A DNA stretch of 64,000 nt from Patescibacteria group bacterium (GCA_028868715.1 JAGWUB010000002.1:145716-209715); one strand, 5' to 3'. Positions 5,323-61,375 are shown, counted from the stretch's first letter. Made by a program: numbers and translations. The notes: generated from the sequence alone by a model not told the origin.

Positions 5323-6414
5323 TTATATTCCCTCTTTTTTGAGTTCTTCTATGAGTTCGCGAGATTTGCGAGAAATTTTTGAAGGAAGTTTTATATTTAA
5401 TTTAATTAACAAATCTCCCCTTTTGTTTTTTCCAGCCGGAACACCTTTGCCTCGCACTCGCAGAATTTCATTTATGGAAACACCTTCAGGTATAGTAACT
5501 TCTATTTTCCCATCAAGGGTCTCTATGGGATATTTCATTCCAAGTAAAGCGTCTGAGAGTTTTAAATTTAAATCCATCACTAAATCATTGCCCTCGCGCT
5601 TAAACATCGCGTGAGGCGCTACATTTATTTTAATATAAAGATCTCCCGAAGTTCCTTTAGACATAGCTTCCCCCATTCCGGTCATCCTGATCATCTCCCC
5701 GTCACGTATACCTGCTGGGATAACGATTGAGATTTCTTCTTCACGGCGCAGTACGCCTTTCCCTTTACAGGTTTCGCATCTTTCTTTTGGAACCTCTCCC
5801 GAGCCATAACAAGTCTCACATACTTTTGTACTAGAAATAGTGCCGAGGAATGATCTCTTGGTCTCATGAATTTTTCCTTGACCGTTGCAAGTCTTACAAG
5901 TTTCCATTTTCGTACCAGCTTTGGCGCCAGAACCCTTACAGACGAGGCAACTAGAAGTTTTCGTAATTAAAATTTTTCTATTTGTCCCAAAAACAGAATC
6001 AGAAAAAGAAATTTGAATTTCGGTTGAAATATCTCTTCCTCGTCGCGCTTGCGCTCTGCCACCGCCACCAAAGAAATCACTAAAGATATCATTTAAATTT
6101 CCAAAATCAAAATCTGCAGAACCACCTTGAAAACCACCTGCGAAATTTGAGAAATCAAAGCCCTCAAAGCCTCCAGCACCCTGCCCGTGGGCCTGACTCA
6201 TATTTTCATATTGTGAGCCAAATTGGTCATATTTAGAGCGTTTAGTGTCATCTGACAGCACTTGATAGGCCTCATTTACTTGCTTAAATTTAGCTTCGTT
6301 TCCCTCTTTTTTATCAGGGTGATATTTGTGCGCCAACTTGTAAAAAGCCTTCTTGATTTCTTCCTTGGAAGCGTTCTTTTTTACTCCTAATGTTTCGTAA
6401 TAATCTTTACTCAT
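5323..6414 (-). CDS. dnaJ: Chaperone DnaJ
   Basis: J-domain (YYETLGV...HPDK), Gly/Phe-rich linker and four CxxCxGxG zinc repeats. Confidence 0.9.
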
Positions 6415-6462: not shown

Positions 6463-7899
6463 CTAGATCATGGGTTCTGGTTCTTGCGAGTTTGTTGCCT
6501 TACCTTCGATTATTTTCTTTTCTTCAACGCTGCGAATAATCGTCGCTTCTTCTTCGGCAATGAGTTTGGCCGCATCATCTTTTGATATTGCATATTTTCT
6601 GCGAGAGGCCGCGATTATTTCATCCCTATATGAAGGATGTGTTGCTGGAAGAACTCGAAGGGTTTCGGCAGAAAATGGGTCGTAGGATTCTCCATCAATG
6701 GTCATTTTTATATAAAACTCTCCAATGGCTAAATTGATCATATCTTTCACGTCAAAGATTGGTGCAAACTCTGGTTTGAGCTTAACTGCGTCCTCCCCGC
6801 CGACGCGAAAGCAAATCAAGGCTCCAGTATTTCCCAGTACTGCCTGCTGAACCTTGGGCATAAGCTGACCGACGTATTGATGAGCGATAGTTAAATTGAG
6901 TCCGTATTTTCGAGCCTCAGATAAAATATTTTCGAAGGTTTGAGTTACGATATTCTGAAACTCATCTATATATAAGTAAAAATCTACTCTATCTTTTTCA
7001 GGAATACTAGCGCGCTCCATTCCAGCTTGTTTTATTTTGGTCAAAAACATTGAACCTAAAAAACTAGAATTTTCTTCGCCAAGGCGACCCTTGGAAAGAT
7101 TAATTAAAATAATTTTTCCCTCATTCATTAGTTTACTGATATCTATTTTGTTTTGTTTTTGGCCGAAAATATTACGCAGCGATGGATCCGAAAGAAATTG
7201 TCCGAGTTTATTCACTAGTGGAATGATAGCGTCAGTATCAAATTTTTCAGACCAGTCAGCAAATTCAATTGCAAAGAATCTTTTCACCATATCGTCGGTA
7301 ATATACTCTACGACTTTCTGGCGATAATTTCTGTCAGTCAACATTGAAATCATTCCGCGCATAGTAGCGTGAGGATAATCGAGCAATGCTAAACAGGTAA
7401 AGCGAAAGACGTGCTCAAGTCTTGGAGTCCAGTTGGCTCCAAACTGTTTCTGGAAAACTTCAATGAGTCCTTGAGTCAATTGAAACTTAAACAATGGATC
7501 AACGTTTGCCAGCGGATTAAAGGATGCGGGAAAGTCGACATCTGTAGGGTCTATGATACAAACATCTTCAATTCGCTCGCGAGGTATATAGTCGAGCATG
7601 GCATCAATCACATCTCCGTGCGGGTCAATCAAACATAGTCCGTGATTGTAAGACACATCTTGTCTTAAAAACAATTCCATCAGCTTTGTCTTGCCGACAC
7701 CTGACTTCCCAACTATATAAAGATGGCGTCTTCTATCTACCCTCTTGATACCAAAAACGAACTTCTTTTCTTCCAGCGAAGCCACATAATTTGTGCGTCC
7801 AATAAAAGAAACCTCTTCGGGATTAACTTTTCCAAAGACTGGTAATTCTGGTGGAGGCGGAGCATATTTAATTATTTGTACTCGATTTCCCTTAGGCAT
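6463..7899 (-). CDS. VirD4/TrwB-like (T4SS coupling-protein family, AAA_10/TraG-D_C type) cytoplasmic ATPase, paralog 1
   Basis: RRRHLYIVGKSGVGKT Walker A, LYIDEFQN Walker B, SEARKYGLNLTIAHQ motif; no transmembrane segments. Confidence 0.65.
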   Translation of the reverse strand: MPKGNRVQIIKYAPPPPELPVFGKVNPEEVSFIGRTNYVASLEEKKFVFGIKRVDRRRHLYIVGKSGVGKTKLMELFLRQDVSYNHGLCLIDPHGDVIDAMLDYIPRERIEDVCIIDPTDVDFPASFNPLANVDPLFKFQLTQGLIEVFQKQFGANWTPRLEHVFRFTCLALLDYPHATMRGMISMLTDRNYRQKVVEYITDDMVKRFFAIEFADWSEKFDTDAIIPLVNKLGQFLSDPSLRNIFGQKQNKIDISKLMNEGKIILINLSKGRLGEENSSFLGSMFLTKIKQAGMERASIPEKDRVDFYLYIDEFQNIVTQTFENILSEARKYGLNLTIAHQYVGQLMPKVQQAVLGNTGALICFRVGGEDAVKLKPEFAPIFDVKDMINLAIGEFYIKMTIDGESYDPFSAETLRVLPATHPSYRDEIIAASRRKYAISKDDAAKLIAEEEATIIRSVEEKKIIEGKATNSQEPEPMI

Positions 7900-7905
7900 A
7901 ATATT

Positions 7906-9846
7906 TTATTCTTCTAAAATTTTCCGTAACACGTCTTCGGGAACTTCTTTGATGTTGCCTTTTGTTAATGGTGGTTCAGCAACTTTTTTATCTATTAAAT
8001 TTTTTAATTTATCCATATCTTCAGCACTCGCAGCCTTATCTTTCTTTGGAGTAATATCCTTCATTTTGTTTTTTAGTGAGTCGAGTGATACAGGGGCTGG
8101 CGCTTTTTCAGGCATTTTGTGCTGTAATACAGTTTCCTTAACCTCTGGTGCTGAAAATACTTTTTTTAACGCCTCCTTCAATCCAAAATTTTCTTTACTA
8201 ACAGGTTTAGGCACATTAGAGTTATGCATAGGTCTTTCAGGGTATGTATCAGCTTCCTCTGGTCCTCCATTTTTTTGTTTAAATTCTATACCTAGATCAG
8301 CTAATGGTTTAAAAAATTTTGTCTCATCTTGTTTAATTTGGTTGATTGATCCTTTGATTGGTTTTATTTCTCCGGATTTTATTTTCGCTATACAGTCTTT
8401 GCAATAAACTGGCCTTCCGGGTTCGGGTTTGAAAGGCACTGTGGTTTCTTTTTTACAAGAAGAACAAACTGCAGGAAATTTTCCCACACTGCCACCGCCG
8501 GTATCGGCATCACCAAGCGACATCCCGCTCCAATTATTTATTTCTCGTTCTACATCTTCCTTGGAGCGACAGTATAATTCACGTGAAGACTTTATGACAG
8601 CATCTTCAATTTCTTTATTTCCAGACTTTACCATCTGTGGTAGGGTTTTGGCTGAAAAAGGACGTGAAGTGACACCATCAATCATTAATTTTAAATAAAT
8701 TTTATAGTTTGGTAAATTGACTATATCCTGCGGGGTAAATTCTGGGTCAAATTCTTTTTCCAAAAATTCTGCATCATCCGAACCTACGCGAAAAATTATC
8801 ATTGTACCGACGTTGCCAAAGACTGCATCCCTCACCGCTGTACTTTTTTCAGAAACAAGCTGAGCGGTATATTGATGAGCAACGGTAAGGTTGAGTCTAT
8901 ACTTTCTAGCTTCCGACAAGATACCAGCGAAAGCGTCTGTCACAAAGTTTTGAAACTCATCAACATATAAGTAGAAATCTTTACGGTCATCTTCGGGTAT
9001 ACGAACACGTTCCATGGCAGCTAGCTGAATCTTTGTAATTATCATGCCACCCAAGAGTGCGGAGTTGTCTTCACCAATGCGTCCTTTGGAAACATTCACT
9101 AGGAAAATTTTTCCTTCGTTCATCATATTAAAAATGTTTATGGTGCTTTTCTGCTGACCGACAACATTTCTGATAATTGAAGTGGAGAGAAATTGTCCGA
9201 CTTTATTTTGAATCGGAGCAATAGCTTCATTTCTAAATTTATCTTGCCAAGCTTCATATTCGTGTACCCAAAAAGCCTTGATAACGGGATCCTTTAAGTT
9301 TGCAATTATTTTCTGGCGATAATCTTTGTCCACCAACATTCTAGGAATTCCAAGCATGGTGGAGCCCGGAGTATCAAGGAGCGCCAAAATCGTATTGTTT
9401 AAAATATATTCCATTCGGGCACTCCAAGCATTCGCCCAAATTTTGGTAAAAATTCCCATGAGTCCAGAAGCCACCAAATGTTTATATTGCGGATCCACGA
9501 GCTCAAGTACGTTAAATCCTATGTGATGATCGGCGTCGGCAGGATTAAAATAAATTACATCTTTTACTCGATGTGGTGGAATAGCTGACAAAACTGCTTC
9601 GACATTTTCTCCATGAGGATCAACCATACATACTCCGTCACCGTTCTGGATATTTTGGATAATCATATTAAACATCAGCACCGATTTACCAGTACCAGAC
9701 TTTCCGAGAATATAAACATGCTGACGCCTGTCTTTGCGCTTGATGCCAAAGAGCTGATTTTTGTCTCGATAAGTAGTGATTCCGAGATAAGTGAGCTCTC
9801 TATTAAAGGGTATTTCTGAAATTTCCATATGCCTCAATTGTAGCAA
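7906..9846 (-). CDS. VirD4/TrwB-like ATPase, paralog 2, with a C-terminal CxxC-x17-CxxC zinc ribbon and a long disordered Lys/Pro/Glu-rich tail
   Basis: RRQHVYILGKSGTGKS, LYVDEFQNF, SEARKYRLNLTVAHQ; C-terminal CSSCKKETTVPFKPEPGRPVYCKDC. Lies immediately next to paralog 1 on the same strand. Confidence 0.65.
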   Translation of the reverse strand: MLQLRHMEISEIPFNRELTYLGITTYRDKNQLFGIKRKDRRQHVYILGKSGTGKSVLMFNMIIQNIQNGDGVCMVDPHGENVEAVLSAIPPHRVKDVIYFNPADADHHIGFNVLELVDPQYKHLVASGLMGIFTKIWANAWSARMEYILNNTILALLDTPGSTMLGIPRMLVDKDYRQKIIANLKDPVIKAFWVHEYEAWQDKFRNEAIAPIQNKVGQFLSTSIIRNVVGQQKSTINIFNMMNEGKIFLVNVSKGRIGEDNSALLGGMIITKIQLAAMERVRIPEDDRKDFYLYVDEFQNFVTDAFAGILSEARKYRLNLTVAHQYTAQLVSEKSTAVRDAVFGNVGTMIIFRVGSDDAEFLEKEFDPEFTPQDIVNLPNYKIYLKLMIDGVTSRPFSAKTLPQMVKSGNKEIEDAVIKSSRELYCRSKEDVEREINNWSGMSLGDADTGGGSVGKFPAVCSSCKKETTVPFKPEPGRPVYCKDCIAKIKSGEIKPIKGSINQIKQDETKFFKPLADLGIEFKQKNGGPEEADTYPERPMHNSNVPKPVSKENFGLKEALKKVFSAPEVKETVLQHKMPEKAPAPVSLDSLKNKMKDITPKKDKAASAEDMDKLKNLIDKKVAEPPLTKGNIKEVPEDVLRKILEE

Positions 9847-9899: not shown

Positions 9900-11816
9900 T
9901 TATGCTTTAGGAGTTTCTCCTTCTGGTGGAGTTTCTTTGAAGTCAGCGTCTTTGACTTCAGAAGGCTGTTCTTCGGGAGTCGAAGATTCTGAGCCTGCTG
10001 AGGGATTATCACCTCCTGCTTTGGCCATAGCTTCGCCTATCTTAGACATTTCAGTAGAAAGTTCTTCGGTCGCTTTTTTAATTGCTTCCGCGTCAGTGCC
10101 ATCTTTCAATCCTCTTAGTGCTGTAATCTTAGTATTTACCTCATCTTTTAATTCTGTTGGAATTTTTTCTTCATTGTCTTTTAATGCTTTTTCAGCAGTA
10201 TAGATAATCATTTCCGCGGTATTTTTAATCTCTACCACTTCTTTTTTCTTATTATCTTCTTCCGCATGAAGCTCAGCGTCGGCTTGCATTTTCTTAATAT
10301 CTTCATCTTTTAGTCCAGAGCTGGCTTCTATTTTAATTGATTGTGATTTTCCAGAAGCCTTGTCTTTTGCCGTGACATTCAAGATTCCGTTGGCGTCCAC
10401 ATCAAACATCACTTCAATCTGCGGAATACCCCTAGGTGCAGGTGGAACTCCATCTAATATAAATCTACCCAAGGACTTGTTGTCGCTCGCCATTGGGCGC
10501 TCACCTTGCACTATATGTATTTCCACGGAGGTTTGGTTGTCAGCAGCAGTAGAGAATGTCTGTGATTTACTAGAAGGAATAGTTGTATTGCGTTCTACTA
10601 GCTTCGTAGCCACTCCACCGAGAGTTTCAATGCCGAGTGAAAGTGGAATCACATCCAGCAAAAGCACATCGCGCACATCTCCTTGTAGCACACCAGCTTG
10701 TACAGCAGCACCGAGTGCTACGACTTCATCCGGATTGATAGAAAGGTTTGGAGTTTTGCCGAAAACTTTTTTCACTTCTTCTACTATTTTTGGCATTCTG
10801 GTTTGTCCTCCAACCATGATAATCTCATTCATGTCTTCCATCTTGAATCCACTTGCTGTCATCGCGCGCTTGGTTATTTCTATGGAGCGAGTTATGTATT
10901 CATCGGCAATAGCTTCGAGTTGAGCGCGAGTCATTTTCAAGAGTAAGTGCTGTGGACCTTCTGCAGTAGAAGTGATGAATGGAATATTTATTTCAGTTTC
11001 AATAGAGGTTGAAAGTTCTATTTTTGCTTTCTCCGCCGCCTCATCTAGGCGTTGCAATGCAAGCTTGTCTTTACGCACATCTATGCCCGAAGTCTTTTTA
11101 TATTCTTCAGCGATCCAACCTATAATCTTGTGATCAATATCACGACCCCCAAGATGACTATCTCCATCTGTAGATTTCACTTCAATGACATCATCGCCAA
11201 TCTCAAGAACCGAAACATCGAAAGTTCCGCCACCGAAGTCGTACACAACTATTTTTTCATTTTTCTTTTTATTAAATCCGTAAGCAAGTGCCGCCGCTGT
11301 CGGTTCATTGATTATACGTTTTACATCAAGTCCGGCGATAGCTCCAGCATCTTTGGTTGCTTTTCTTTGCGCATCGTTAAAATATGCTGGCACAGTGATG
11401 ACGGCTTCAGTTACTTTTTCCCCAAGCTTCGCTTCGGCGTCAGATTTCATTTTTCCTAAAATCATCGCCGAGATTTCTTCCGGTCGCATCCACTTATCTC
11501 CAATCTTTACCTCAACGCCTCCATTGGTGGATTTTTGAATTTTAAAAGATGCATTTTTTAAATCTTTCTGAACTTCTGGATCGTCAAAATTGTGACCCAT
11601 AAAGCGCTTGATACCATAAACAGTATTTTCTGGGTTTGTAACTGCTTGTCTTTTAGCTAAGAGTCCTACGAGCCTATCGCCATTTTTAGCGATAGAAACG
11701 ATGGATGGCGTCGTACGAGCACCTTCTATATTTTCTATAATCTTTGGCACACCGCCCTCAATGACAGCTACTGCCGAATTTGTTGTACCTAAGTCTATTC
11801 CTATTATTTTTGACAT
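9900..11816 (-). CDS. dnaK: Chaperone DnaK (Hsp70)
   Basis: [24 protein letters not shown] and the other canonical Hsp70 motifs; acidic C-terminal tail. Confidence 0.95.
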
Positions 11817-37254: not shown

Positions 37255-37926
37255 ATGTTTAAAACAAATAATAAAAGAATAATATCGGGTATAATTTTTG
37301 GCTTAGGAATATTGGCTGTTTTAGCTTTTGCGCCAATCAAAGTAGATGCTCAATACTATTACAATGATGGATATGCTCATTTGGATCAACTAGCAAACCC
37401 AACTCCATTTATTTCTTCAGCGACTCAGACTTCAAGCAATAACGGAACTGTAATTATAAAAGGGTATGGCTTCATTCCAAGCTCAAGAGCAAAGTTAAAT
37501 GGTGTTGACTCCCCTACTACTTTCATAGACTCTTCTCATCTTTTAGTGAGATTAAATACTGGCAACTTATCTGGCAATGATCCTATGTATATTTCTGTCA
37601 TGAACGGAGAGCCAGGTGGAGGATATTCTAATGCGATTTTACTTAATAATCCTACTATGGTTACTAACACAAACACCTACAATAGCAACAGTACTTCTAC
37701 TACAAATAACTCTGCGAACAATTCTTATTCAGGAAACACAAACAACACCACCGGAAGCGTTAGTGCTCTCGCATCCAATGCCATCTTCGGAGGAAATAGC
37801 TTGGTGCCTTCAGGATTAATAGAGTGGGTCCTATTCGGAATAGTAATTTTGCTTATAATAATAATTGTTAGAAAATTCACCGGAGCTAGTGATCGCTATC
37901 ACAATTCCCCATTAAAACATTCTTAA
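37255..37926 (+). CDS. Secreted surface protein with an Asn/Ser/Thr-rich region and a C-terminal TM anchor
   Basis: Signal peptide, low-complexity N/S/T tract, C-terminal hydrophobic anchor. Confidence 0.45.
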   Translation: MFKTNNKRIISGIIFGLGILAVLAFAPIKVDAQYYYNDGYAHLDQLANPTPFISSATQTSSNNGTVIIKGYGFIPSSRAKLNGVDSPTTFIDSSHLLVRLNTGNLSGNDPMYISVMNGEPGGGYSNAILLNNPTMVTNTNTYNSNSTSTTNNSANNSYSGNTNNTTGSVSALASNAIFGGNSLVPSGLIEWVLFGIVILLIIIIVRKFTGASDRYHNSPLKHS

Positions 37927-39095: not shown

Positions 39096-39962
39096 ATGCG
39101 AGTAGAGATAGATAGAATTTTGGGAGCAATTTTTACTTTGTTGGCACTTACAAGCATCTACATGACACTTACGAGCTTCTGGTACTCATCTTGGTTTTTA
39201 TGGACACTATTGACCGTCTGGACTTTGGCACTCAGTGTCTGGGTTTGGGACGGTTGGAGTAAGCATAAGCTGGAAGTCGGACACAAGGGACAACTTCTAT
39301 TTCTGGGCAGTAGACTTATGTACTTTTTCCAAGAAGGAAGACGTTTTGCGCCTAAACCTTTCGGTATAAAAACAACCGATTGCCGGAAACAGATAATGCC
39401 ACTGGATAAGTTGGAAGTGATAACCAAAGACAATGTGAAGGTGTTGGTTGGTGGGACGGTTGTATACCACGTTGAAAATTTAGACACTTTTTTTAGTATT
39501 GCTGAATCAGGGTTAAGAAAAGGTATCGATGATACTCGAGACCAAGCTATACGAGGAAAAGTTCGAGGTATGGACCTAGAGAAAGTTCTTGATTCTCACC
39601 AAGAACTTGGAGGAGATGTAAGCATTGCTCTTCAAAGTGGAAGCGCTCAATGGGGAGTACATATTGATCAGGTCATCGTGCCTGAAATAGCTCCTGATCC
39701 AAAAGTTGTGGAAGATCTCGAGCTCAAAGAGCGGGAAAATTTGCAACGAGATGGTCAAATAGTGGAATTAGAGCATTTCTCAAATAGAGTGAAAGAGCTT
39801 ATGCTTAAATCACCTGATGGCCCTGGACTCAGTCGAGAGCAAGCGATTGAACAAGTTCAACTGACCCTAGGTCAAACTACAAAGGCAACTGATGCTAAAA
39901 ACATCACCCTAGACTCAGCAACGGCACAGATGCTTGCAACAATTTTGGGAGGGAAAAAATGA
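39096..39962 (+). CDS. SPFH/band-7 (stomatin/prohibitin-like) domain membrane protein
   Basis: Trp-rich N-terminal TM hairpin, SPFH core (VITKDNVKVLVGGTVVYHV), C-terminal coiled coil. GC content is clearly higher than the flanking sequence. Confidence 0.75.
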   Translation: MRVEIDRILGAIFTLLALTSIYMTLTSFWYSSWFLWTLLTVWTLALSVWVWDGWSKHKLEVGHKGQLLFLGSRLMYFFQEGRRFAPKPFGIKTTDCRKQIMPLDKLEVITKDNVKVLVGGTVVYHVENLDTFFSIAESGLRKGIDDTRDQAIRGKVRGMDLEKVLDSHQELGGDVSIALQSGSAQWGVHIDQVIVPEIAPDPKVVEDLELKERENLQRDGQIVELEHFSNRVKELMLKSPDGPGLSREQAIEQVQLTLGQTTKATDAKNITLDSATAQMLATILGGKK

Positions 39963-40366
39963 TAATAAAAACTTTATTTATTGTTTTCATGGTGATAGCA
40001 ATAGTGCTGGGAATTACCGTTGGACTTGTTTACCTTACAAAGTCCTCTGTGGAGATCTCAAAAAATACATCAGTAAACAATACAACATCGACCCCAAACC
40101 TGGCTCCAATCGTGGTGCAGGAGAAAAGATTCGTTGTCGTACGAGAGTGCGACACTCCCTGCCAGATGGAGGTAGGGACGGACGAATTTATCGACACAGG
40201 CCTCAAACCTGCGTTGGTAAAGTTTAATGGGCGAAGTGAGTGGTTCACTTTGTCAGGTCGGAGGGATGATCCAATCCCTGCCGATAAATTTAATTCGGGG
40301 CAAGCACAGTTTGCTTCGTTGAAGAATGCACCTTCCATCCGGGTGCAGGTAAAGGAATTAAGGTAA
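39959..40366 (+). CDS. Small membrane-anchored protein coupled to the SPFH gene (NfeD-like partner?)
   Basis: 4-nt overlap with the SPFH stop, GGGAGGG Shine-Dalgarno, N-terminal TM helix plus a ~100-aa domain. Confidence 0.4.
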   Translation: MIIKTLFIVFMVIAIVLGITVGLVYLTKSSVEISKNTSVNNTTSTPNLAPIVVQEKRFVVVRECDTPCQMEVGTDEFIDTGLKPALVKFNGRSEWFTLSGRRDDPIPADKFNSGQAQFASLKNAPSIRVQVKELR

Positions 40367-40482: not shown

Positions 40483-40812
40483 TTACTTTATCGATTGGCT
40501 ATCTACTGTTCCCTGCTGAGGATGTATATAATTTATGCCCAAGGTATTTAAAATCAGACCCATAATCGCCCAAACTCCGAGCATTATAGTGATACCGATA
40601 ATGCCCCAAACCATATGACTCTTGCCAGTCGTTTTTTTTTCTTCATTTTCTTGATTGAGAAGAAATTCAAGAACACCGTACAGAAAAAATAATATAGCTA
40701 AGGCAAAAAGCAGATATATGAGTGGGTTTATGATGGAAGCATCAACTTTATGGATGAAATCATCCACGCTGGTACCTGCAGCATAAGCTATTTTAGTAGA
40801 AAATAAATCCAT
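40483..40812 (-). CDS. VirB2/TrbC-like T4SS-pilin-like small membrane protein, paralog A
   Basis: Two hydrophobic helices separated by an EEKK..GKS loop (PLIYLLFALAILFFLYGVLEF ... MVWGIIGITIMLGVWAIMGLIL). Confidence 0.55.
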   Translation of the reverse strand: MDLFSTKIAYAAGTSVDDFIHKVDASIINPLIYLLFALAILFFLYGVLEFLLNQENEEKKTTGKSHMVWGIIGITIMLGVWAIMGLILNTLGINYIHPQQGTVDSQSIK

Positions 40813-40817
40813 TCCTG

Positions 40818-41216
40818 TTATTGACCAATTGTTGGAAGAGTAATCGTTGATTGATTTCCTTGTGGCACAAAAGTTCTTACTACAATGTTTACAAGTCCCC
40901 AGACAGCCACAATGACCGCCAAACCAATAATACCGTAGATTATTCTGTTGCGGCCAGTCTTCTTTGCTTCCTCATCACTAGCAATAACATAAGTAATAAC
41001 TCCCCAAACAAAGTAAACTACTCCAAGCGCTATCAACACTGGAACAATTGCATTAAGAATTTGACCTATCTTACACAACATACCTGGTATGTCAGTTACC
41101 GCAGCACCAGGAGTACATACAGTGACGGCACCGATACCAGTAGTTATTTGTGCCAATGCCACCATTGGCGCAAAGCCTAAAACAAAACCCGACAATACAA
41201 TTAATTTCTTTTTCAT
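40818..41216 (-). CDS. T4SS-pilin-like protein, paralog B
   Basis: Signal peptide, a Cys pair, and the same two-helix motif (IVPVLIALGVVYFVWGV...EEAKKTGRNRIIYGIIGLAVIVAVWGLVN). Confidence 0.55.
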   Translation of the reverse strand: MKKKLIVLSGFVLGFAPMVALAQITTGIGAVTVCTPGAAVTDIPGMLCKIGQILNAIVPVLIALGVVYFVWGVITYVIASDEEAKKTGRNRIIYGIIGLAVIVAVWGLVNIVVRTFVPQGNQSTITLPTIGQ

Positions 41217-41360
41217 AATGATTTATAAAACCTTTAATAATAATTTCGCGACCCTTTTAATAATGATTTAATGACCATATTTTACCACAAAGAACAAACG
41301 TAATAAAGCTATATACTGTGTATTATCCTACATACCAAAGGCTAAGGCAAATTTTCTTTA

Positions 41361-41807
41361 TTAATGACAATATCCATCGCTACCGCAATATTGACCATAT
41401 ATTGGGCATTCACTGTCGGTACTACATGATGTCGGAATACCTCCTCCGCCACCGCCTGTGGATCCTCCTCCACTACCACTTCCTCCTCCACCTGGTGTTG
41501 TTGTAGATGGATTTATGAATAGAGTATGCGAAGGCACTATTCCTGGAAGGACCCTGGTGTTGATGCGAAGAGTTCCACCCAAAATGGCTACTAGAGCCCA
41601 AACAGAACTAATGACCACAAAAGCTACAATGCCCCAGATCATAAATTGCTTACCTTGGGTTCTCTTGGCTTCTTCGTCAGCATTTATTATGAAAAACTTT
41701 ACTACACCCCAAACGAATAAAACAGCGGCCAAAGTAAAAATGAGTGGAATGATAGATCCACTAATAAGTTTAGTTCCATAATTAAATACATCTCCTATAT
41801 TTCCCAT
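41361..41807 (-). CDS. T4SS-pilin-like protein, paralog C, with a Gly-rich linker and a Cys-rich C-terminal knot
   Basis: IIPLIFTLAAVLFVWGVVKFF..EEAKRTQGKQFMIWGIVAFVV..; C-terminal GGGGSGSGGGSTGGGGGG...CSTDSECPIYGQYCGSDGYCH. Confidence 0.55.
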   Translation of the reverse strand: MGNIGDVFNYGTKLISGSIIPLIFTLAAVLFVWGVVKFFIINADEEAKRTQGKQFMIWGIVAFVVISSVWALVAILGGTLRINTRVLPGIVPSHTLFINPSTTTPGGGGSGSGGGSTGGGGGGIPTSCSTDSECPIYGQYCGSDGYCH

Positions 41808-41832
41808 AAATAATCTATCTTATTTATAACTA

Positions 41833-42411
41833 TCATTGCGCTGTCTGTGGAGGAACTTCTGATCTTATATCAATATTAAAAGTACTTCCCAAAATAGCTA
41901 CCAATCCCCACACACATAGCATCACCGTCATTGCAATTAGTCCCCAGACCATAAACTGCTTGCCTTGGCTGCGCTTGGCTTCTTCGTCAGCATTTATTAT
42001 GAAAAACTTTACTACACCCCAAACGAAAGCAGCCAAAGCTACCGCAAATATAAATGGAATGATGGAGTCTTTTATGGTGCAATCTATGTATCCTACTAAA
42101 TTTCTAAATGTTGTACCTACTCCCCCAGCGGTGTTGCATCCTGCTGTGGTTGTGGGATATGTAGGCGCAGTTCCTGCAAGATGAAAAGTGTTAACGACTA
42201 AATTAACGAGCCCCCACAAGCTAGTGATGACAGCTAGTCCAATGATTCCATAAATTATTCTATCTCTTCCTCTTTTTTTAGCCTCTTCTCCACCAGCGAT
42301 AACATATTGCACTACACCCCAAATAAAAAAAACAAGCCCAAGGGATACTAAAATCGGAATTATAGAATTGAGAATATTTTGCGCTGTACTAAATAGGTTG
42401 GATAAATTCAT
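41833..42411 (-). CDS. T4SS-pilin-like protein, paralog D (tandem two-domain fusion: N-terminal half resembles B, C-terminal half resembles C)
   Basis: Two complete copies of the helix-EEAK-helix module. A 51-nt stretch at 41967-42017 is identical to 41667-41717 in paralog C. Confidence 0.55.
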   Translation of the reverse strand: MNLSNLFSTAQNILNSIIPILVSLGLVFFIWGVVQYVIAGGEEAKKRGRDRIIYGIIGLAVITSLWGLVNLVVNTFHLAGTAPTYPTTTAGCNTAGGVGTTFRNLVGYIDCTIKDSIIPFIFAVALAAFVWGVVKFFIINADEEAKRSQGKQFMVWGLIAMTVMLCVWGLVAILGSTFNIDIRSEVPPQTAQ

Positions 42412-42418
42412 AATTTAA

Positions 42419-42871
42419 TTAACCAAGTCCAGAAACAGTGGTGACAATAAGGTTTGCAATGGCCCAAGCTCCGAGAAGTATCGCTGCTCCTATAAGTGTA
42501 TAAAACAGAGCGTCTTTGGCTTCTGTGAGTTTTGCTTCTTTTCCTCTAGCAGACACAAAAAGAAAACCGCAGTAAATGATGGCCAGAGCTACTATTGGTA
42601 TACCTATCTTGAGCGCACCTATCAAAGCATTATGAATAAATGTAGGTATATCTGTGGGACCATTTGGACCAAGTGGATTGTGGATTTTACCATCGTTGAC
42701 GGTATCGTTGGTTGGGGTAGGTTGCCCTCCATTAGAGCTGGGAGTGGGTTGTTGCGCAAAAGAAAGTATTGGTAAAACAAAAATGGAAAAAATAAAGACT
42801 GTTATAGTTACAAATAATATATTTTTCTTAATAAATTTCATAGTTTTAATTATAACATAGCTAAAAACCAA
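42419..42871 (-). CDS. T4SS-pilin-like protein, paralog E
   Basis: Signal peptide, Pro/Thr-rich region, then IGIPIVALAIIYCGFLFVS..GKEAKLTEAKDALFYTLIGAAILLGAWAIANLIV. Confidence 0.5.
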   Translation of the reverse strand: MVFSYVIIKTMKFIKKNILFVTITVFIFSIFVLPILSFAQQPTPSSNGGQPTPTNDTVNDGKIHNPLGPNGPTDIPTFIHNALIGALKIGIPIVALAIIYCGFLFVSARGKEAKLTEAKDALFYTLIGAAILLGAWAIANLIVTTVSGLG

Positions 42872-43427
42872 TCCAAGTACCAGTATAACCTAAGGTTTTT
42901 AATAAAAGCATGATGATAAGGTAAGCGCAAAATGCGATTATCAGACCGATGGCAGCGTTGAGAAAGATTTCTTTTGCTTTTGTCCTTGCACTAGTATCAC
43001 CAGCCGAAGTTAAAAGTAAAAAACCGGCATATGCAAACATAATAGCAGCAATCGGTAAAGCCAAACCAACTAGAATGAATTTAATGATGTTATTTACAAG
43101 AGCCATGACGCTGTTGAAATTACAAGCATCAGCTGGATCCGCTACTCTTATGATTAAATTTTTATTTACGGAATATGTACCGTCTTTATTTTGATTTACT
43201 TGATATTCGCAAATTATTTTTCTACCACACTGAACTATGCCTATACCTGTATTTTGGTTCTTTTGGTTCTCGGAACATATGCTCGGATCAACGGGGTTAG
43301 CTTTCTGTGCTGCATCAAAGCTACAATAATTTGTACTTGAGCCTGTACACTGCGCAAAAGAAATAGCTGGCACAATAAACATCAAAAACATTGAAGTGGC
43401 TATCAGAAATTTTGTTTTATTTTTCAT
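42861..43427 (-). CDS. T4SS-pilin-like protein, paralog F, with a 7-Cys N-terminal extracellular domain
   Basis: Signal peptide, Cys-rich ~90-aa domain, then LALPIAAIMFAYAGFLLLTSAGD..AKEIFLNAAIGLIIAFCAYLIIMLL. Confidence 0.5.
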   Translation of the reverse strand: MKNKTKFLIATSMFLMFIVPAISFAQCTGSSTNYCSFDAAQKANPVDPSICSENQKNQNTGIGIVQCGRKIICEYQVNQNKDGTYSVNKNLIIRVADPADACNFNSVMALVNNIIKFILVGLALPIAAIMFAYAGFLLLTSAGDTSARTKAKEIFLNAAIGLIIAFCAYLIIMLLLKTLGYTGTWIGF

Positions 43428-43431
43428 AAAT

Positions 43432-44721
43432 TTATTTTATTAATAGAAGATCCAACTTGGAGCTACTGTCACTGATGGCATCTCGCGCAGTCATATTGTT
43501 TGAAATGACTGATTCAACCATCGTACGAAAAATATTATTGGTTCCACTTGGGGATGGGTCTAGCCAGCTCTTACTATATAAAGCGGAATCGTAAAAAATT
43601 GGAGAGTAGGCATCGGCTGGTTTTATGGCTAGCAGATCTCGACGTGCGGGTGGTATGGCTAAAGCGTTGGCAAACTTAGAAGCAAAATCACTAGTAGCGA
43701 TTAGGCTCGCCGCAGTAAAAGCTGTCGTTAAATTTTTAGAAGCAGATGAAATGGCAAGACCAGTGACTCGAGCACTAGTTATCTTTGTAGATGCATCTGC
43801 GAGCTGAGGTATCGGCGCAACTCCTAAGTTTTGATTTGGATTTCTGTTTACCAAAGATTGAAATTCAGAAGCAAATCCAAAATAAAAAGCTAAGTCTTCA
43901 GAGCTAAAAGCATCCGTAGAATTTGAAAAAGATTTATTCCACGAATATATACTTTGGGCTGGGTCGGTAAAATTTGTGTAATATTGCAAGATTGTGCTAA
44001 GGTCGTGTTTCTCATTAAAAACGTTCAAAAAAGATCCGAGAGATCCATTTTTTTGAGCAATGATAGGATTTCCAGTCTGCATAAACATAGCTACCAAGAT
44101 GTCTTTCGCGTGAGCAATATTAGAAAAATCTCCTAGCGCCACTGCGCTTTTTAATATTTTATTTGAAGTGTCTTTCTTGGTAATGAGTGGAGCTTGGGTG
44201 GATAATTCGTCCCAAGTTTTTGGCGGATAAACAATTGCATTTGAATCAAGCATACTTCGGTTGTAATACAGCATTAGTGGATCAATCGTCATTGGGAAGG
44301 CCAATATTCCATTAGAAGTCAGAAACACGCTCCCTGCCCCCGCAAAAGTGTTGTTAAAAGTAACTAACGGATAACTGGTGTATGGAATAGGAAAAATTTT
44401 ATTGGAATAATGAACAGCTAAATTATCCGGCAAGAAAAACATGTCAGGTCCAGTACCAGAAGCGAGCGCCTCCAGCAAGCTTTGGTCAAAAGTATCTGCG
44501 GACTTCTCTATATAGTTCACGGAAAAAGTTTGATTGGCCGTATTAAAATCATTAATAAGCGGAAGCATTGTTGCCGCCGGTACTGTACCCCACAATACAA
44601 CTGTACCCGTGGCTTTGTTGCTACTGTTGCCAAGTGGTATTGCGCCAGAAAAAACCAAAACACCAAAAACAGCTCCAGCTATGAATATGATTATAATTAT
44701 AGTTTGAAAAGTCCCTTTCAT
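43432..44721 (-). CDS. Membrane-anchored family-1 extracellular solute-binding-protein-like protein (orphan, no ABC permease or ATPase nearby)
   Basis: VVLWGT, PDMFFLPDN and YNRSMLD...PPKTWDEL motifs of SBP_bac_1/8; N-terminal TM anchor. Confidence 0.7.
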   Translation of the reverse strand: MKGTFQTIIIIIFIAGAVFGVLVFSGAIPLGNSSNKATGTVVLWGTVPAATMLPLINDFNTANQTFSVNYIEKSADTFDQSLLEALASGTGPDMFFLPDNLAVHYSNKIFPIPYTSYPLVTFNNTFAGAGSVFLTSNGILAFPMTIDPLMLYYNRSMLDSNAIVYPPKTWDELSTQAPLITKKDTSNKILKSAVALGDFSNIAHAKDILVAMFMQTGNPIIAQKNGSLGSFLNVFNEKHDLSTILQYYTNFTDPAQSIYSWNKSFSNSTDAFSSEDLAFYFGFASEFQSLVNRNPNQNLGVAPIPQLADASTKITSARVTGLAISSASKNLTTAFTAASLIATSDFASKFANALAIPPARRDLLAIKPADAYSPIFYDSALYSKSWLDPSPSGTNNIFRTMVESVISNNMTARDAISDSSSKLDLLLIK

Positions 44722-44722
44722 G

Positions 44723-45253
44723 TTATTGCTTTACTAATATCATACCATAATGATGAGCGCCTGCATCAATATTACGCTCTAAAACAAAACCTTTTTGCTC
44801 AAACATTTCGAGAGCTCTTGTTTTTGGAAAAGCTGAGTTTAATTTGATAGCCACAGGTTCACCTTCAGACTCTACCAACCAGTCGATCACGAGTACTCTG
44901 CCGCCAGGCTTCAAAATCCTTCTGATCTCTTCGATAAATTTATTTTTGTCTTCAATTTGAAAAAGGATGTTGGAAGCGATAACCGCATCCACAATATTAT
45001 TTCCTATTCTTGTTCCACCGACAGTCTCAACGTCGCCCCAAAGTATTTCTACGTTATTTAAATGGGCTTCTTGTACCTTGTTTTTAATTGTAGTTAAAAA
45101 ATCTTTTGTAATTTCAACAGCGTAAACTTTTCCACGAGAAACGATGGCACCAGCAGGCAAAGTATAGTAGCCAGTTCCCGCCCCTAAATCAGCCACAATA
45201 TTGTCTTCTCTTAAACTGAAGGCTTTTAAGTTTTTTACCGGATCGGTAAACAT
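44723..45253 (-). CDS. Class I SAM-dependent methyltransferase
   Basis: VADLGAGTGYYTL motif I and following methyltransferase motifs. Confidence 0.75.
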   Translation of the reverse strand: MFTDPVKNLKAFSLREDNIVADLGAGTGYYTLPAGAIVSRGKVYAVEITKDFLTTIKNKVQEAHLNNVEILWGDVETVGGTRIGNNIVDAVIASNILFQIEDKNKFIEEIRRILKPGGRVLVIDWLVESEGEPVAIKLNSAFPKTRALEMFEQKGFVLERNIDAGAHHYGMILVKQ

Positions 45254-45269
45254 ATTTTATATTGTAACA

Positions 45270-47741
45270 CTAAATGCAAGCTAAAGAAGCAATCCCGTCG
45301 CCTCCACGCAGACGCATTACGGTCACGCCTTGAGTTTGGCGACCTAGGTTTGGAATATCTTTGAGCGCAGTGCGAATGACTTGTCCTTTTTTAGACATAG
45401 CTATTAATTCTTCTTCCTCGCCACCCAAAACTTTGGCTACTATCAGTTTACCCGTTTTAGGAGTCACTTTGGCAGTTTTGATTCCTGAACCTCCCCGTTT
45501 TTGAACTTTATATTCTTTCAAGGCAGTCTTTTTACCAAAACCGTTGGCGCTCATTGTCAGAAACGCACCTTTTTCAATAGTTTTTTTAATAACATCTACC
45601 CCGATAACTTCGTCACCTTTTTTCAGTTTTATGCCCGTCACTCCTCCAGCAGTTCTACCCATTTCGCGCACGTCAGATTCTTTAAATCTTATCGACTGCC
45701 CATCACCAGTGGCAATCATGACTTCATCACCTTTGTTTGTAGCCAGGGCCGAGATAAGTTGATCTCCCTTATCTAGGCGGATAGCAATAATTCCACTTTG
45801 GCGAACATCCTGGAAAGAAGCTGCTGCCATTTTTTTAGCAGTACCATCTTTGGTGACTAGCATCAGCGAAGAAGCGGCCTCTTCTTTTTTCTTGGGCATT
45901 GCTAAAATTGAAGTAACTTTTTCATCTCCAGAGAGTGAAAGGAAATTCATAATTGACTTACCTCGAGTAGCGCGACGGCCTTCGGGGATGTCATACATTT
46001 TCATTTGATAAACTTTTCCTAGGTTGGTAAAGAATAGTAGGTTGCTATGAGTCGAACCTGATACCAACATGGTGACAAAATCTTCTTCTTTGGTTTCTAG
46101 GTCAATCACTCCGACTCCACCACGTTTTTGGGCTTTGTATTCTTTGGGATCAGTGCACTTCACATATCCACCAGCTGTTAATACTAGCATCGTTTCTTTT
46201 TCAGGTATTAAATCTTCATCTGAAATTTCTTTGACTCCGCCTTTGACTATCTTGGTACGACGCTCATCGGCATACTTTGCGCGAATTTCTTTTATCTCGT
46301 CACTGATAATTTTAAGTATCTTTTTAGAGCTTGCTAAAAGATCTTTCATGTCGGCGATGAATTTCTGCTTTTCTTTTAGTTCGTCTTCCACCAATTTTCT
46401 CTCCAGACCAGCAAGTTTGGATAATTTCATCTCCAAAATAGCTGTCGCTTGTAGATCTGAAAACTTAAATTCCTTAATCAAATTTACTTTTGCAATTTGA
46501 GAATTTTTTGAAGCTCGGATAATGCTGATAACTTTATCTATTTTATCCAGCGCTTTTTTGAGACCGAGTAATATGTGTTCACGTTCCTCAGCTTTTCTCA
46601 AATCAAAAGCACTTCTTCTCTTGACTACTTCTTTTCTATGTAAAATAAATTGCTCTAATATGGACTTCAAGGAAAGAGTCTGCGGTACGCCATCTACCAA
46701 CGCCACCATATTAAAATTAAAATTTTGTTCTAGTTGGGTATTTTTATAGATATAATTTAAAACTTTTTCTGGATGGGCACTACCCTTCAAGTCAATCACA
46801 ATACGAATATCTTTGGTAGATTCATCGCGAAGTCCCTTGATTCCATCAAGTTTTTTTTCTTGTACCAATTCGGCAATGGCCATTATTAAATTAGCCTTGT
46901 TGACTCTGAAAGGAATAGAAGTAATGATAATCTGTGGATTGCCATTTTTGTCTTCGGTTATTTCTGCCTCTCCTCGGCACACCACCCCACCTCGGCCTGA
47001 CGAATAAGCATGAAGCATATCTTTAGAGCCATAAGCAATGCCACCGGTTGGAAAGTCTGGTCCCTTAATAAATTGCATCAAGTCTTCGGTCGTAGCGTCT
47101 GTGTTTTCTATTAAATGAATCGTGGCGTCCAAAACTTCACCAAGGTTGTGTGACGGAATATTTGTCGCCATACCGACAGCGATACCAAGTGTGCCGTTTA
47201 AAAGTAGCGCTGGCACCGCAGCTGGCAAGACTATTGGTTCTTTGCGAGTCTGGTCATAGTTTGGGCGAAAATCCACAGTTTCTTTTTCTAAATCACGTAA
47301 AAGTTCGTTTGAAACTTTGGTCATCTTTGCTTCGGTATAACGCATAGCCGCCGGATTGTCTCCATCGATAGAACCAAAGTTCCCCTGACCCCAGATCAAC
47401 GGATAACGATAAGAAAATTCTTGCGCCATTCCAACCATAGAATCATAAACAGCTGTATCACCATGTGGATGATATTTTCCCAATACATCTCCGACAATTG
47501 CAGCTGATTTACGAAAACGCGCAGTAGAAGTTAAACCCATTTCATTCATTCCAAATAAAATTCGGCGATGCACCGGCTTGAGTCCGTCTCGCACATCGGG
47601 AAGTGCTCGTGAAGTAATCACGGTCATAGCATAGGCTATGTATGATTCCTTCATTTCCGCCACGATGTCTACTCCGACAACTACGTTACCGGCTTTTTTT
47701 TCATTTGGATCACTTGCAGGTTCTTTTATTTTTTTTACCAT
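45270..47741 (-). CDS. gyrA: DNA gyrase subunit A
   Basis: [25 protein letters not shown], an active-site tyrosine region, and a C-terminal beta-pinwheel. Confidence 0.95.
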
Positions 47742-59650: not shown

Positions 59651-59844
59651 TTTTTTGCTGTTGTTTGTTTTGTTTCGTTCTATAACTTAGAAGTCTTTCC
59701 TTCCGGCCAAATAGTTTTTAGGAAGTTCTATTATTTTCCATTGTGTAGTCAATTGAGCTACACAATACCGACTCAATAAGTCTGATCAGAATGGGTCTGA
59801 TACACAATTCTAATAAATTAAAATTGAGACATTTTTCAAATTGA

Positions 59845-61375
<1,531 letters not shown>

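Follow-up and report, generated by a model that had tools for sequence, protein, structure and literature searches.

We analysed a 64,000-nucleotide (nt) stretch of DNA from an ultra-small bacterium of the class Paceibacteria (Patescibacteria group bacterium, GCA_028868715.1, JAGWUB010000002.1:145716-209715), referred to below as the window, and describe here an operon on its minus strand in which genes for a methyltransferase and for a protein with a solute-binding fold precede a tandem array of small pilin-like genes. The locus is a chromosomal, vertically inherited operon consisting of the methyltransferase, the binding-fold protein and five or six non-redundant pilin paralogues, six of them in this genome. 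An initial annotation of the window had placed six co-directional small genes here with an S-adenosylmethionine (SAM) methyltransferase alongside, and both are present, the six genes running from 40483 to 43427 on the minus strand. The features of the locus, with lengths in amino acids (aa), are as follows.

45270-47741, minus strand: gyrA, identified by translation of its open reading frame (ORF); the upstream neighbour, given as context and lying outside the unit
44723-45253, minus strand: class I SAM-dependent methyltransferase, 176 aa; Pfam Methyltransf_31/11/25; predicted cytoplasmic; first gene of the unit
43432-44721, minus strand: SBP_bac_1 protein of MalE type, 429 aa; PF01547
42861-43427, minus strand: pilin A, 188 aa; PF18895, 35.2 bits
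42419-42841, minus strand: pilin B, 140 aa from the ATG at 42841; PF18895, 30.4 bits
41833-42411, minus strand: double pilin C-D, 192 aa; PF18895, 62.6 bits, in two stretches
41361-41807, minus strand: pilin D', 148 aa; PF18895, 32.7 bits
41217-41360, minus strand: intergenic region with candidate internal promoter and leader motif, 144 nt; from comparison over 75 loci
40818-41216, minus strand: pilin E, 132 aa; PF18895, 43.0 bits
40483-40812, minus strand: pilin F, 109 aa; PF18895, 33.1 bits

A single nucleotide separates the methyltransferase stop from the start of the binding-protein gene, and the gaps from the binding-protein gene through pilin F are, in order, 4, 19, 7, 25, 144 and 5 nt. 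The 19-nt gap between pilins A and B applies to the ATG start of pilin B, which is the start called in an identical public contig (140 aa). The pilin B ORF reaches a TTG at 42871 (150 aa), and use of that start would turn the gap into an 11-nt overlap.

Pilin domains and the binding-fold protein

In a Pfam scan all six small genes pass the gathering cut-off of PF18895 (T4SS_pilin; 26.6 bits), with scores of 30.4-62.6 bits. The initial annotation had assigned them to the VirB2/TrbC-type and type IV secretion system (T4SS) pilin family; the T4SS_pilin part of that assignment is upheld, and the TrbC part, which is not, is weighed below. The nearest NCBIfam model for the pilins is 'pilin-like conjugal transfer protein', which they match under its cut-off. 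None of the six matches a holin or bacteriocin immunity family, rival assignments that the initial annotation had named.

The six genes hold seven pilin domains, since the 192-aa gene contains two hairpins. Hydropathy profiles and an alignment of the seven domains reveal the same plan in every one, namely two hydrophobic helices around a short basic loop. The proposal of six paralogues sharing an EEAK-Gly loop is thus correct as to the number of genes and the two-helix architecture. It needs amending as to the number of domains and the motif itself, because only four of the seven domains have EEAK exactly, the others having the variants NEEKK, GKEAK and GDTSARTKAK instead. Within the array the paralogues are 10-37% identical, save for two pairs at 56% (domain 1 of the double pilin and pilin E) and 59% (domain 2 of the double pilin and pilin D'). 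Together with the positive-inside rule, the hydropathy profile suggests a topology in which the basic loop (EEAKKRGR and its variants) would be cytoplasmic and both termini would face outward. With the termini outside, three parts would be extracellular: the pilin A ectodomain, the stretch that links the two hairpins of the double pilin, and the Cys-rich tail on pilin D'.

The individual pilins are elaborated in different ways. Pilin A has a signal peptide (...SFA/QC), a six-Cys N-terminal domain and then a VirB2-like hairpin. Its orthologues range from 85 to 399 aa and differ in their N-terminal ectodomains, which give weak Ig/Fn3-like matches (InlB B-repeat, DUF5018, purple acid phosphatase N-terminal domain). 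Pilin B consists of a signal peptide (...SFA/QQ), a Pro/Thr-rich linker and the hairpin, and pilin E of a signal peptide (...ALA/QI) and the hairpin. Cleavable signal peptides are therefore predicted in three of the six pilins, and in each case cleavage would leave an N-terminal Gln, as is also found in Agrobacterium VirB2. The double pilin C-D is predicted to have four transmembrane (TM) helices or hydrophobic segments, forming two hairpins with an extracellular linker between them. Pilin F lacks a classical signal peptide and is the most position-stable of the paralogues.

Pilin D' carries a Gly-rich linker and a four-Cys C-terminal tail after its hairpin. Its best match in other genomes is the second domain of the double pilin (54 of 80 loci) and, judged by such comparison, it is a lineage-specific extra copy of that domain. 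In its C-terminal part (41361-41480), which is predicted to be extracellular, the linker reads GGGGSGSGGGSTGGGGGG and is followed by the short tail CSTDSECPIYGQYCGSDGYCH. The tail looks like a small disulfide-knotted appendage.

The protein encoded ahead of the pilins scores 56.9 bits against PF01547 (cut-off 26). An AlphaFold2 model built with 17 close homologues was unusable (predicted local distance difference test, pLDDT, of 55), and we used instead an alignment of 72 more diverse sequences, which gave a pLDDT of 92.4 and a predicted template-modelling score (pTM) of 0.86. In this model an N-terminal helix of 23 residues is connected by a low-confidence linker to a two-lobe domain. The top matches of the model in the PDB (Foldseek; 16-21% identity, E=1e-21 to 1e-22) are oligosaccharide-binding proteins of ATP-binding cassette (ABC) importers, including Lmo0181 with cycloalternan, Atu4361, a cyclo/maltodextrin-binding protein, MalE2, GacH and CpMnBP1. 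TM-scores are highest against open, ligand-free forms. By sequence the nearest solved relative is 4r9f, with a full-length match (E=1.6e-24). We are confident that the modelled fold is a genuine MalE-type, family-1 solute-binding fold, in agreement with the membrane-anchored family-1 binding protein of the initial annotation.

The initial annotation had also called this protein a lipoprotein, and that description does not hold. The protein contains no cysteine, none of 486 homologues has a lipobox, and its sole hydrophobic segment in the N-terminal region is a TM helix at residues 8-26. This helix shows about the degree of conservation that is typical of the globular domain, and it includes a conserved Phe-Gln pair; its conservation hints at a specific contact inside the membrane. 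A type IV pilin-like (class III) signal peptide was considered for the protein and rejected, as Gly(-1) and Glu(+5) are not conserved. Over the 72 aligned sequences, which extend down to 36% identity, 33 columns are invariant, and the invariant residues include W44, W170, W261, Y70, Y152, Y259, Y280, D93, D147, E286 and Q306. Taken by residue type and not by position in the cleft, these residues would be compatible with a conserved carbohydrate pocket.

Conservation across Paceibacteria and the internal promoter

Homologues of the binding protein are numerous and taxonomically confined. More than 1400 are found at 64-79% identity, and 1075 clusters of a 50%-identity library match at E<1e-30 as full-length proteins of about 430 aa, the N-terminal helix included. 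All named matches belong to Paceibacterota, Parcubacteria or Minisyncoccia. For the comparison of gene order we took 80 species-representative loci from GTDB genomes and mapped their genes with purpose-built hidden Markov models (HMMs). A pilin gene starts less than 200 nt past the binding-protein stop in all 75 loci whose downstream flank is 600 nt or longer. On its other side, the binding-protein gene is separated from the methyltransferase gene by -4 to 77 nt in the loci of related species. The complete arrays contain five genes in 48 loci and six in 17, with five to seven domains.

The upstream boundary of the unit behaves differently from its interior. An insertion of 0.7-2 kb lies between gyrA and the methyltransferase in 22 of 74 loci, whereas no insertion is found within the methyltransferase-binding protein-pilin unit in the loci of related species. 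The gene order is also kept in seven further contexts at 35-47% binding-protein identity (Wolfebacteria, Pacebacteria and Parcubacteria by name), in one of which two extra genes lie between gyrA and the methyltransferase; matches to DNA_topoisoIV and DNA_gyraseA_C identify gyrA in the orthologous contexts. Given that the order persists at low identity and despite insertions on the gyrA side, the methyltransferase, the binding protein and the pilins form a tight, ancient, class-wide unit that is not peculiar to one genome.

The gyrA-methyltransferase junction is itself an insertion hot spot. It often carries a transposase of the Y1 (IS200/IS605) type and once a PAP2 phosphatase gene; examples are L003 8784-9410, L005 4779-5405 and L093 7841-9436.

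Orthology within the array follows position. Each array position has its own orthologue elsewhere, with median domain identities of 58-69% in a best-hit analysis. Pilin B matches the second array position in 57 + 19 of 82 loci, and most related arrays have a two-domain gene at the C-D position, each half of which has its own orthologues. Pilin E is orthologous to the penultimate position in 65 of 81 loci (median identity 69%) and pilin F to the last position in 80 of 82 (median identity 66%). Over 59 species, median pairwise identity is 86% for GyrA, 85% for the S1 protein and 76% for a neighbouring protein of metallo-beta-lactamase fold, as against 64% for the methyltransferase, 64% for the binding protein and 55-63% for the pilin cores. 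By this measure, the binding protein, the methyltransferase and the pilins evolve at a similar pace, faster than the housekeeping genes, and each is under purifying selection.

A second conserved feature is the gap that precedes pilins E and F. Nearly all related loci have a gap at this array position, 80-245 nt long. In the window it contains a candidate promoter, TTGCCT-17-GATAAT, at 41350-41322, a second candidate with an extended -10 element, TGGTAAAAT, at 41287-41279, and a leader motif, TTATTAAAAGGGTCGCGAAATTATTA, at 41263-41238, which is unique in the window. Among the 75 gaps compared, 26 contain TTGnnn-N16-18-TAwAAT, typically as TTGCTT-N17-TATAAT, compared with 2.8 in shuffled sequences, and 62 contain GGTCG, compared with 3.1. 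In the alignment of leaders, TTATTA repeats flank GGTCG(C) downstream of the promoter, at the same position in loci L007-L090. The pattern TTAT[TA]A-N0-6-GGTCG has 58 matches in 1.5 Mb of loci, 48 of them in this leader, and of the remaining 10 most fall within pilin arrays from loci that are partial or distant. A TATAAT-like -10 element is retained here in distant loci, including those that lack the GGTCG motif. A generic scan for promoters and terminators found the locus no richer than shuffled sequence, and the internal promoter is convincing only because of the comparison across 75 loci. No Rfam family matches within the locus, and no base-pairing is obvious in the leader.

Pilins E and F may thus be transcribed more strongly than the genes before them and be abundant subunits. 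This would fit a published metatranscriptome of cultured Paceibacteria, in which T4SS pilins figure in the top five signal-peptide genes by expression, the adjacent pair PMX.50_00607/00608 included (PMC10936435).

Functional interpretation and alternatives

Neither T4SS machinery nor an ABC transporter accompanies the operon, as the initial annotation had stated for both. The Pfam scan of the window covered most ORFs of at least 100 aa, the others being mostly nested in larger genes. Among the scanned ORFs, which extend about 40 kb to one side of the array and about 19-20 kb to the other, there is no VirB3, VirB4, VirB6 or VirB8-11, nor is there one in 13 annotated contexts. No ABC permease or ATPase was found in the window or in the 13 Pfam-annotated contexts (±10 kb), and no ORF combines a Walker A motif with LSGGQ in 86 loci with ±10 kb flanks from about 80 species. 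Since VirB4 is present in 2417 of 3035 Patescibacteria assemblies, a T4SS machine is likely encoded elsewhere in the source genome; in Paceibacteria, virB4 usually lies near dnaA (PMC12102498).

The window does contain two tandem VirD4/TrwB-like ATPases of the coupling-protein type (HerA/DUF87) at 6463-9846 on the minus strand, about 31 kb from the array. They lie between dnaJ (5323-6414) and dnaK (9900-11816), inside the chaperone operon, and the larger one ends in a treble-clef zinc finger. Thousands of VirD4-like genes lie far from virB4 in Patescibacteria (PMC12102498).

Tandem pilin arrays in Patescibacteria are already known, and it is the function of the present one that we infer. A survey recorded 441 VirB2-like pilin arrays of 2-11 genes in Patescibacteria, with a mean identity of 25% and a maximum of 54% (Quiñonero-Coronel et al. 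2025, PMC12102498), and such arrays are highlighted in a recent review (PMC12857230). Fig. S9 of the survey maps arrays as 'near virB4', its text gives Microgenomatia and Saccharimonadia as the classes in which arrays are most abundant, and Paceibacteria is the most represented class in its T4SS data (PMC12102498). Southlakia epibionticum has six PF18895 pilins, SEML1_0014-0019, all of them essential and located within a T4SS cluster (Wang et al. 2023, PMC10633639). The array in the window resembles these in consisting of tandem PF18895 genes (six in Southlakia and six here), in being chromosomal, from a monoderm and without relaxase context, and in having paralogues that are structurally alike yet divergent, at 10-59% identity. 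With six consecutive genes it falls within the array definition of the survey (2-11 tandem pilins, or one non-pilin gene between). The survey further asked for virB4 within 20 coding sequences, and within the window none lies so close; an array this distant from virB4 will be missed by surveys limited to the virB4 neighbourhood.

The published arrays were scored next to virB4 and lack a binding protein or methyltransferase, whereas the array described here is virB4-distal and has a methyltransferase and a binding-fold protein at its head, a fused double pilin and an internal promoter. Full-text literature searches returned no paper linking a solute-binding protein to a pilin array. The initial annotation had called the arrangement undescribed, which is accurate for the binding protein and too broad for the arrays themselves. 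Four features are new: an operon, found class-wide, that joins a methyltransferase and a MalE-type binding protein to the pilins; the location of this operon away from virB4; a fixed set of orthologous paralogues that includes a fused double pilin; and the conserved internal promoter with its leader motif.

Two better-known protein families provide further points of comparison. Like the VirB2/TrbC pilins of Gram-negative T4SSs, the proteins here are small, with two hydrophobic helices and a short basic loop; unlike them, they fall under the PF04956 cut-off, do not lie beside virB3/virB4 and comprise several non-redundant paralogues in place of one major pilin. The binding protein shares its two-lobe fold, its length and its Pfam family with the CUT1 binding proteins (MalE, GacH, Lmo0181, CpMnBP1). 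It differs from them in sequence (16-21% identity), in having no adjacent permease or ATPase in about 90 contexts, in lying always upstream of pilin genes, and in being anchored by a conserved TM helix and not by lipid. CUT1 binding proteins are encoded with two permease genes, often with an ATPase gene as well, and in monoderms a lipoprotein anchor with a lipobox cysteine is a feature of theirs. Binding-fold proteins that serve a T4SS or a pilus-like assembly do have precedents in PrgZ of pCF10, ChvE-VirA of Agrobacterium and the Sulfolobus bindosome; PrgZ and ChvE capture signals, and the bindosome proteins assemble into a surface structure. However, these precedents belong to other families of binding proteins (Opp-type family 5, ribose-type), PrgZ still uses a host permease, and the bindosome proteins carry type IV pilin signal peptides, unlike the binding protein here.

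The reading that we favor, with a probability of roughly one half, is that the locus is the Paceibacteria version of the patescibacterial VirB2-like pilin array, in which the operon supplies a heteromeric set of pilins for a T4SS-like apparatus and the binding protein works with that apparatus at the surface. Under this reading the pilins would assemble as a heteromeric filament or stalk on a T4SS-like machine (VirB4, VirB6 and others) encoded elsewhere. Pilin A would be a low-abundance adhesive or tip subunit with a variable extracellular domain, and the fused C-D pilin would place different paralogues side by side in the assembly. The initial annotation had suggested an adhesin or receptor module, an idea to which the variable domain of pilin A may lend some indirect support. 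Pilins E and F, behind their own strong promoter, would be the abundant subunits, with pilin E a candidate major subunit. The binding-fold protein, held in the membrane by its conserved helix and made together with the minor pilins, would most likely act at the cell surface with the apparatus and recognize a conserved carbohydrate-like ligand, and this recognition would serve host contact or the capture of host-derived material. The methyltransferase, whose relatives in the PDB are solely uncharacterised structural-genomics methyltransferases, may modify some component of the pilin/T4SS system. A bolder version, in which the binding protein is an integral accessory of the T4SS pilus, capturing a carbohydrate or glycolipid from the host and either passing it to the T4SS conduit or gating that conduit, while the methyltransferase modifies the pilins or their bound lipid, seems to us unlikely.

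Several results weigh against the favored reading. No pilin reaches the PF04956 (TrbC) cut-off of 27.9 bits; the best scores are 24.9 bits and, for pilin A, 22.2 bits, and the other four genes have none or marginal ones. A search of PDB sequences with a profile of the seven domains gave only chance matches to helices of G-protein-coupled receptors (GPCRs) and found no solved pilin, and there is thus no sequence link to any solved pilin. To our knowledge, a pilus built of PF18895 proteins has not been seen in any organism, so the label 'pilin' rests on remote homology. The whole neighbourhood, including the S1 protein, the metallo-beta-lactamase-fold protein, gyrA and others, is syntenic across the class, which makes adjacency by itself weak evidence of shared function. 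In a mirror-tree analysis (partial correlations with GyrA controlled), the binding protein correlates with pilin F at 0.38 and with the unrelated neighbour LacB at 0.36, that is, without a specific signal; a correlation of 0.79 between pilins A and B was dropped because it came from two or three loci with miscalled genes. Finally, the metagenome-assembled genome of Yanofskyibacterium parasiticum has the order gyrA fragment, methyltransferase, four PF18895 genes and tRNA, without a binding protein (PMX_810_sub_00750-00755; PMC10936435 Supplementary Table S2). This organism is a parasite of the archaeon Methanothrix, and its methyltransferase and pilin genes are transcribed in culture (PMC10936435). 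The binding protein is therefore not obligatory for the pilins and is dispensable in at least one lineage, and the methyltransferase-pilin link is more general than the binding protein-pilin link.

The synteny of the surrounding housekeeping genes, the missing co-evolution and the Yanofskyibacterium case would all be expected if the binding protein were the ordinary receptor of a CUT1-type sugar ABC importer encoded elsewhere and its position before the pilins were inherited gene order, an explanation that we consider possible but rather doubtful. The normal MalE-type fold of the binding protein, its nearest matches among the oligosaccharide-binding proteins of importers and the large number of its aromatic and acidic residues that are invariant, as a sugar pocket might have, suit such a receptor as well. 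It accounts less readily for the near or actual translational coupling on both sides of the gene (-4 to 77 nt upstream and, in 75 of 75 loci, less than 200 nt downstream) and for a unit that stays intact where insertions break the link to gyrA. Nor does it sit well with a membrane helix that equals the globular domain in conservation, an unusual property in a simple anchor, or with the lack of transporter genes nearby: the ±10 kb flanks from about 80 species contain no pair of ABC ATPase motifs, and about 90 contexts contain no transporter gene. A receptor for a neighbouring ABC importer is less likely.

Two other explanations concern the pilins themselves. The PF18895 proteins might form a two-helix membrane complex, for example a channel or a platform for the binding protein, and not a filament, so that the locus would encode a new kind of uptake or sensing device independent of any pilus. 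A membrane complex of defined composition could also account for the four-helix fusion and for the fixed paralogue set, and the conserved TM helix of the binding protein could dock onto such a complex; for PF18895 no pilus has been demonstrated. We nevertheless find this quite improbable, given the Pfam homology to VirB2/TrbC pilins and the pilin-like conjugal transfer protein as nearest NCBIfam model, the location of the homologous six-gene array of Saccharibacteria inside a T4SS cluster, and the variable extracellular domains of the first pilin, which fit a surface-exposed structure. Alternatively, as the initial annotation had suggested, the array might be a locus for pilin diversification or antigenic variation, with rapid turnover of copy number and sequence as in Bartonella or Anaplasma. 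The low identity among paralogues within the array and the highly variable length of the first-pilin ectodomain are in keeping with this idea. It is largely refuted for the pilin cores, and very improbable overall, by the cross-genome comparison: all 65 complete arrays have five or six genes, orthologues are specific to each position, a single cluster at 50% identity takes in 56 of 59 first-pilin cores, and pilin D' is the sole lineage-specific duplication seen in the window. Positional orthology, stable gene number and conserved cores together argue against a diversification locus.

In the one species tested, the patescibacterial T4SS is required for growth on the host, and reviews call its function completely unknown (PMC11665869, PMC12857230). 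If the bolder version, with its pilus-linked receptor, is true, the locus would offer a first molecular handle on the essential T4SS of these episymbionts as a device for nutrient uptake or host recognition. Two products of the fixed operon are experimentally tractable, the binding-fold protein, which is soluble and easy to express, and the methyltransferase; the ligand of the one and the substrate of the other could show what the apparatus handles. The pilins are a stable, non-redundant set with one fusion of two paralogues and with what would be a two-tier design of expression, in which the last two genes have a separate promoter. If, instead, the link to the binding protein is one of inherited gene order only, what remains is one more case of a known pilin array.

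Genomic surroundings

The remaining genes of the window are housekeeping genes (the dnaK operon, ribosomal proteins, rpoA, alaS, clpB, secA and mur ligases), together with one 16S rRNA and five tRNAs, and the GC content of 0.34-0.44 does not shift at the locus. An origin from a mobile element, or as a remnant of conjugation, was considered and rejected on the grounds of uniform GC content, housekeeping context and an identical chromosomal site across the class. In the PHROGs database neither the binding protein nor the pilins have a match, and the methyltransferase matches generic methyltransferase families only. Plasmid sequences contain only distant generic binding proteins and no match to the pilins.

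The full-length 16S rRNA gene lies between protein-coding genes at 59839-61374 on the minus strand. No 23S rRNA is present in the remaining 2.6 kb of the window upstream of it or directly downstream within the window, and this looks like an unlinked rRNA arrangement.

Past pilin F, two genes at 39096-40366 on the plus strand converge on the end of the array. They encode a Band_7/SPFH protein and, in an overlapping gene, a 135-aa membrane protein of no known family with a single TM segment, and the pair is found at this place in many other loci, both related and distant. At 37255-37926 on the plus strand, some 2.5 kb past the array, lies a gene for a 223-aa protein that combines a signal peptide with an Asn/Ser/Thr-rich region and a TM anchor at the C terminus and that may be another surface protein retained in the neighbourhood. 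A similarly placed gene in related loci (for example, L003 16413-17099) matches a TIG/IPT (Ig-like) domain.

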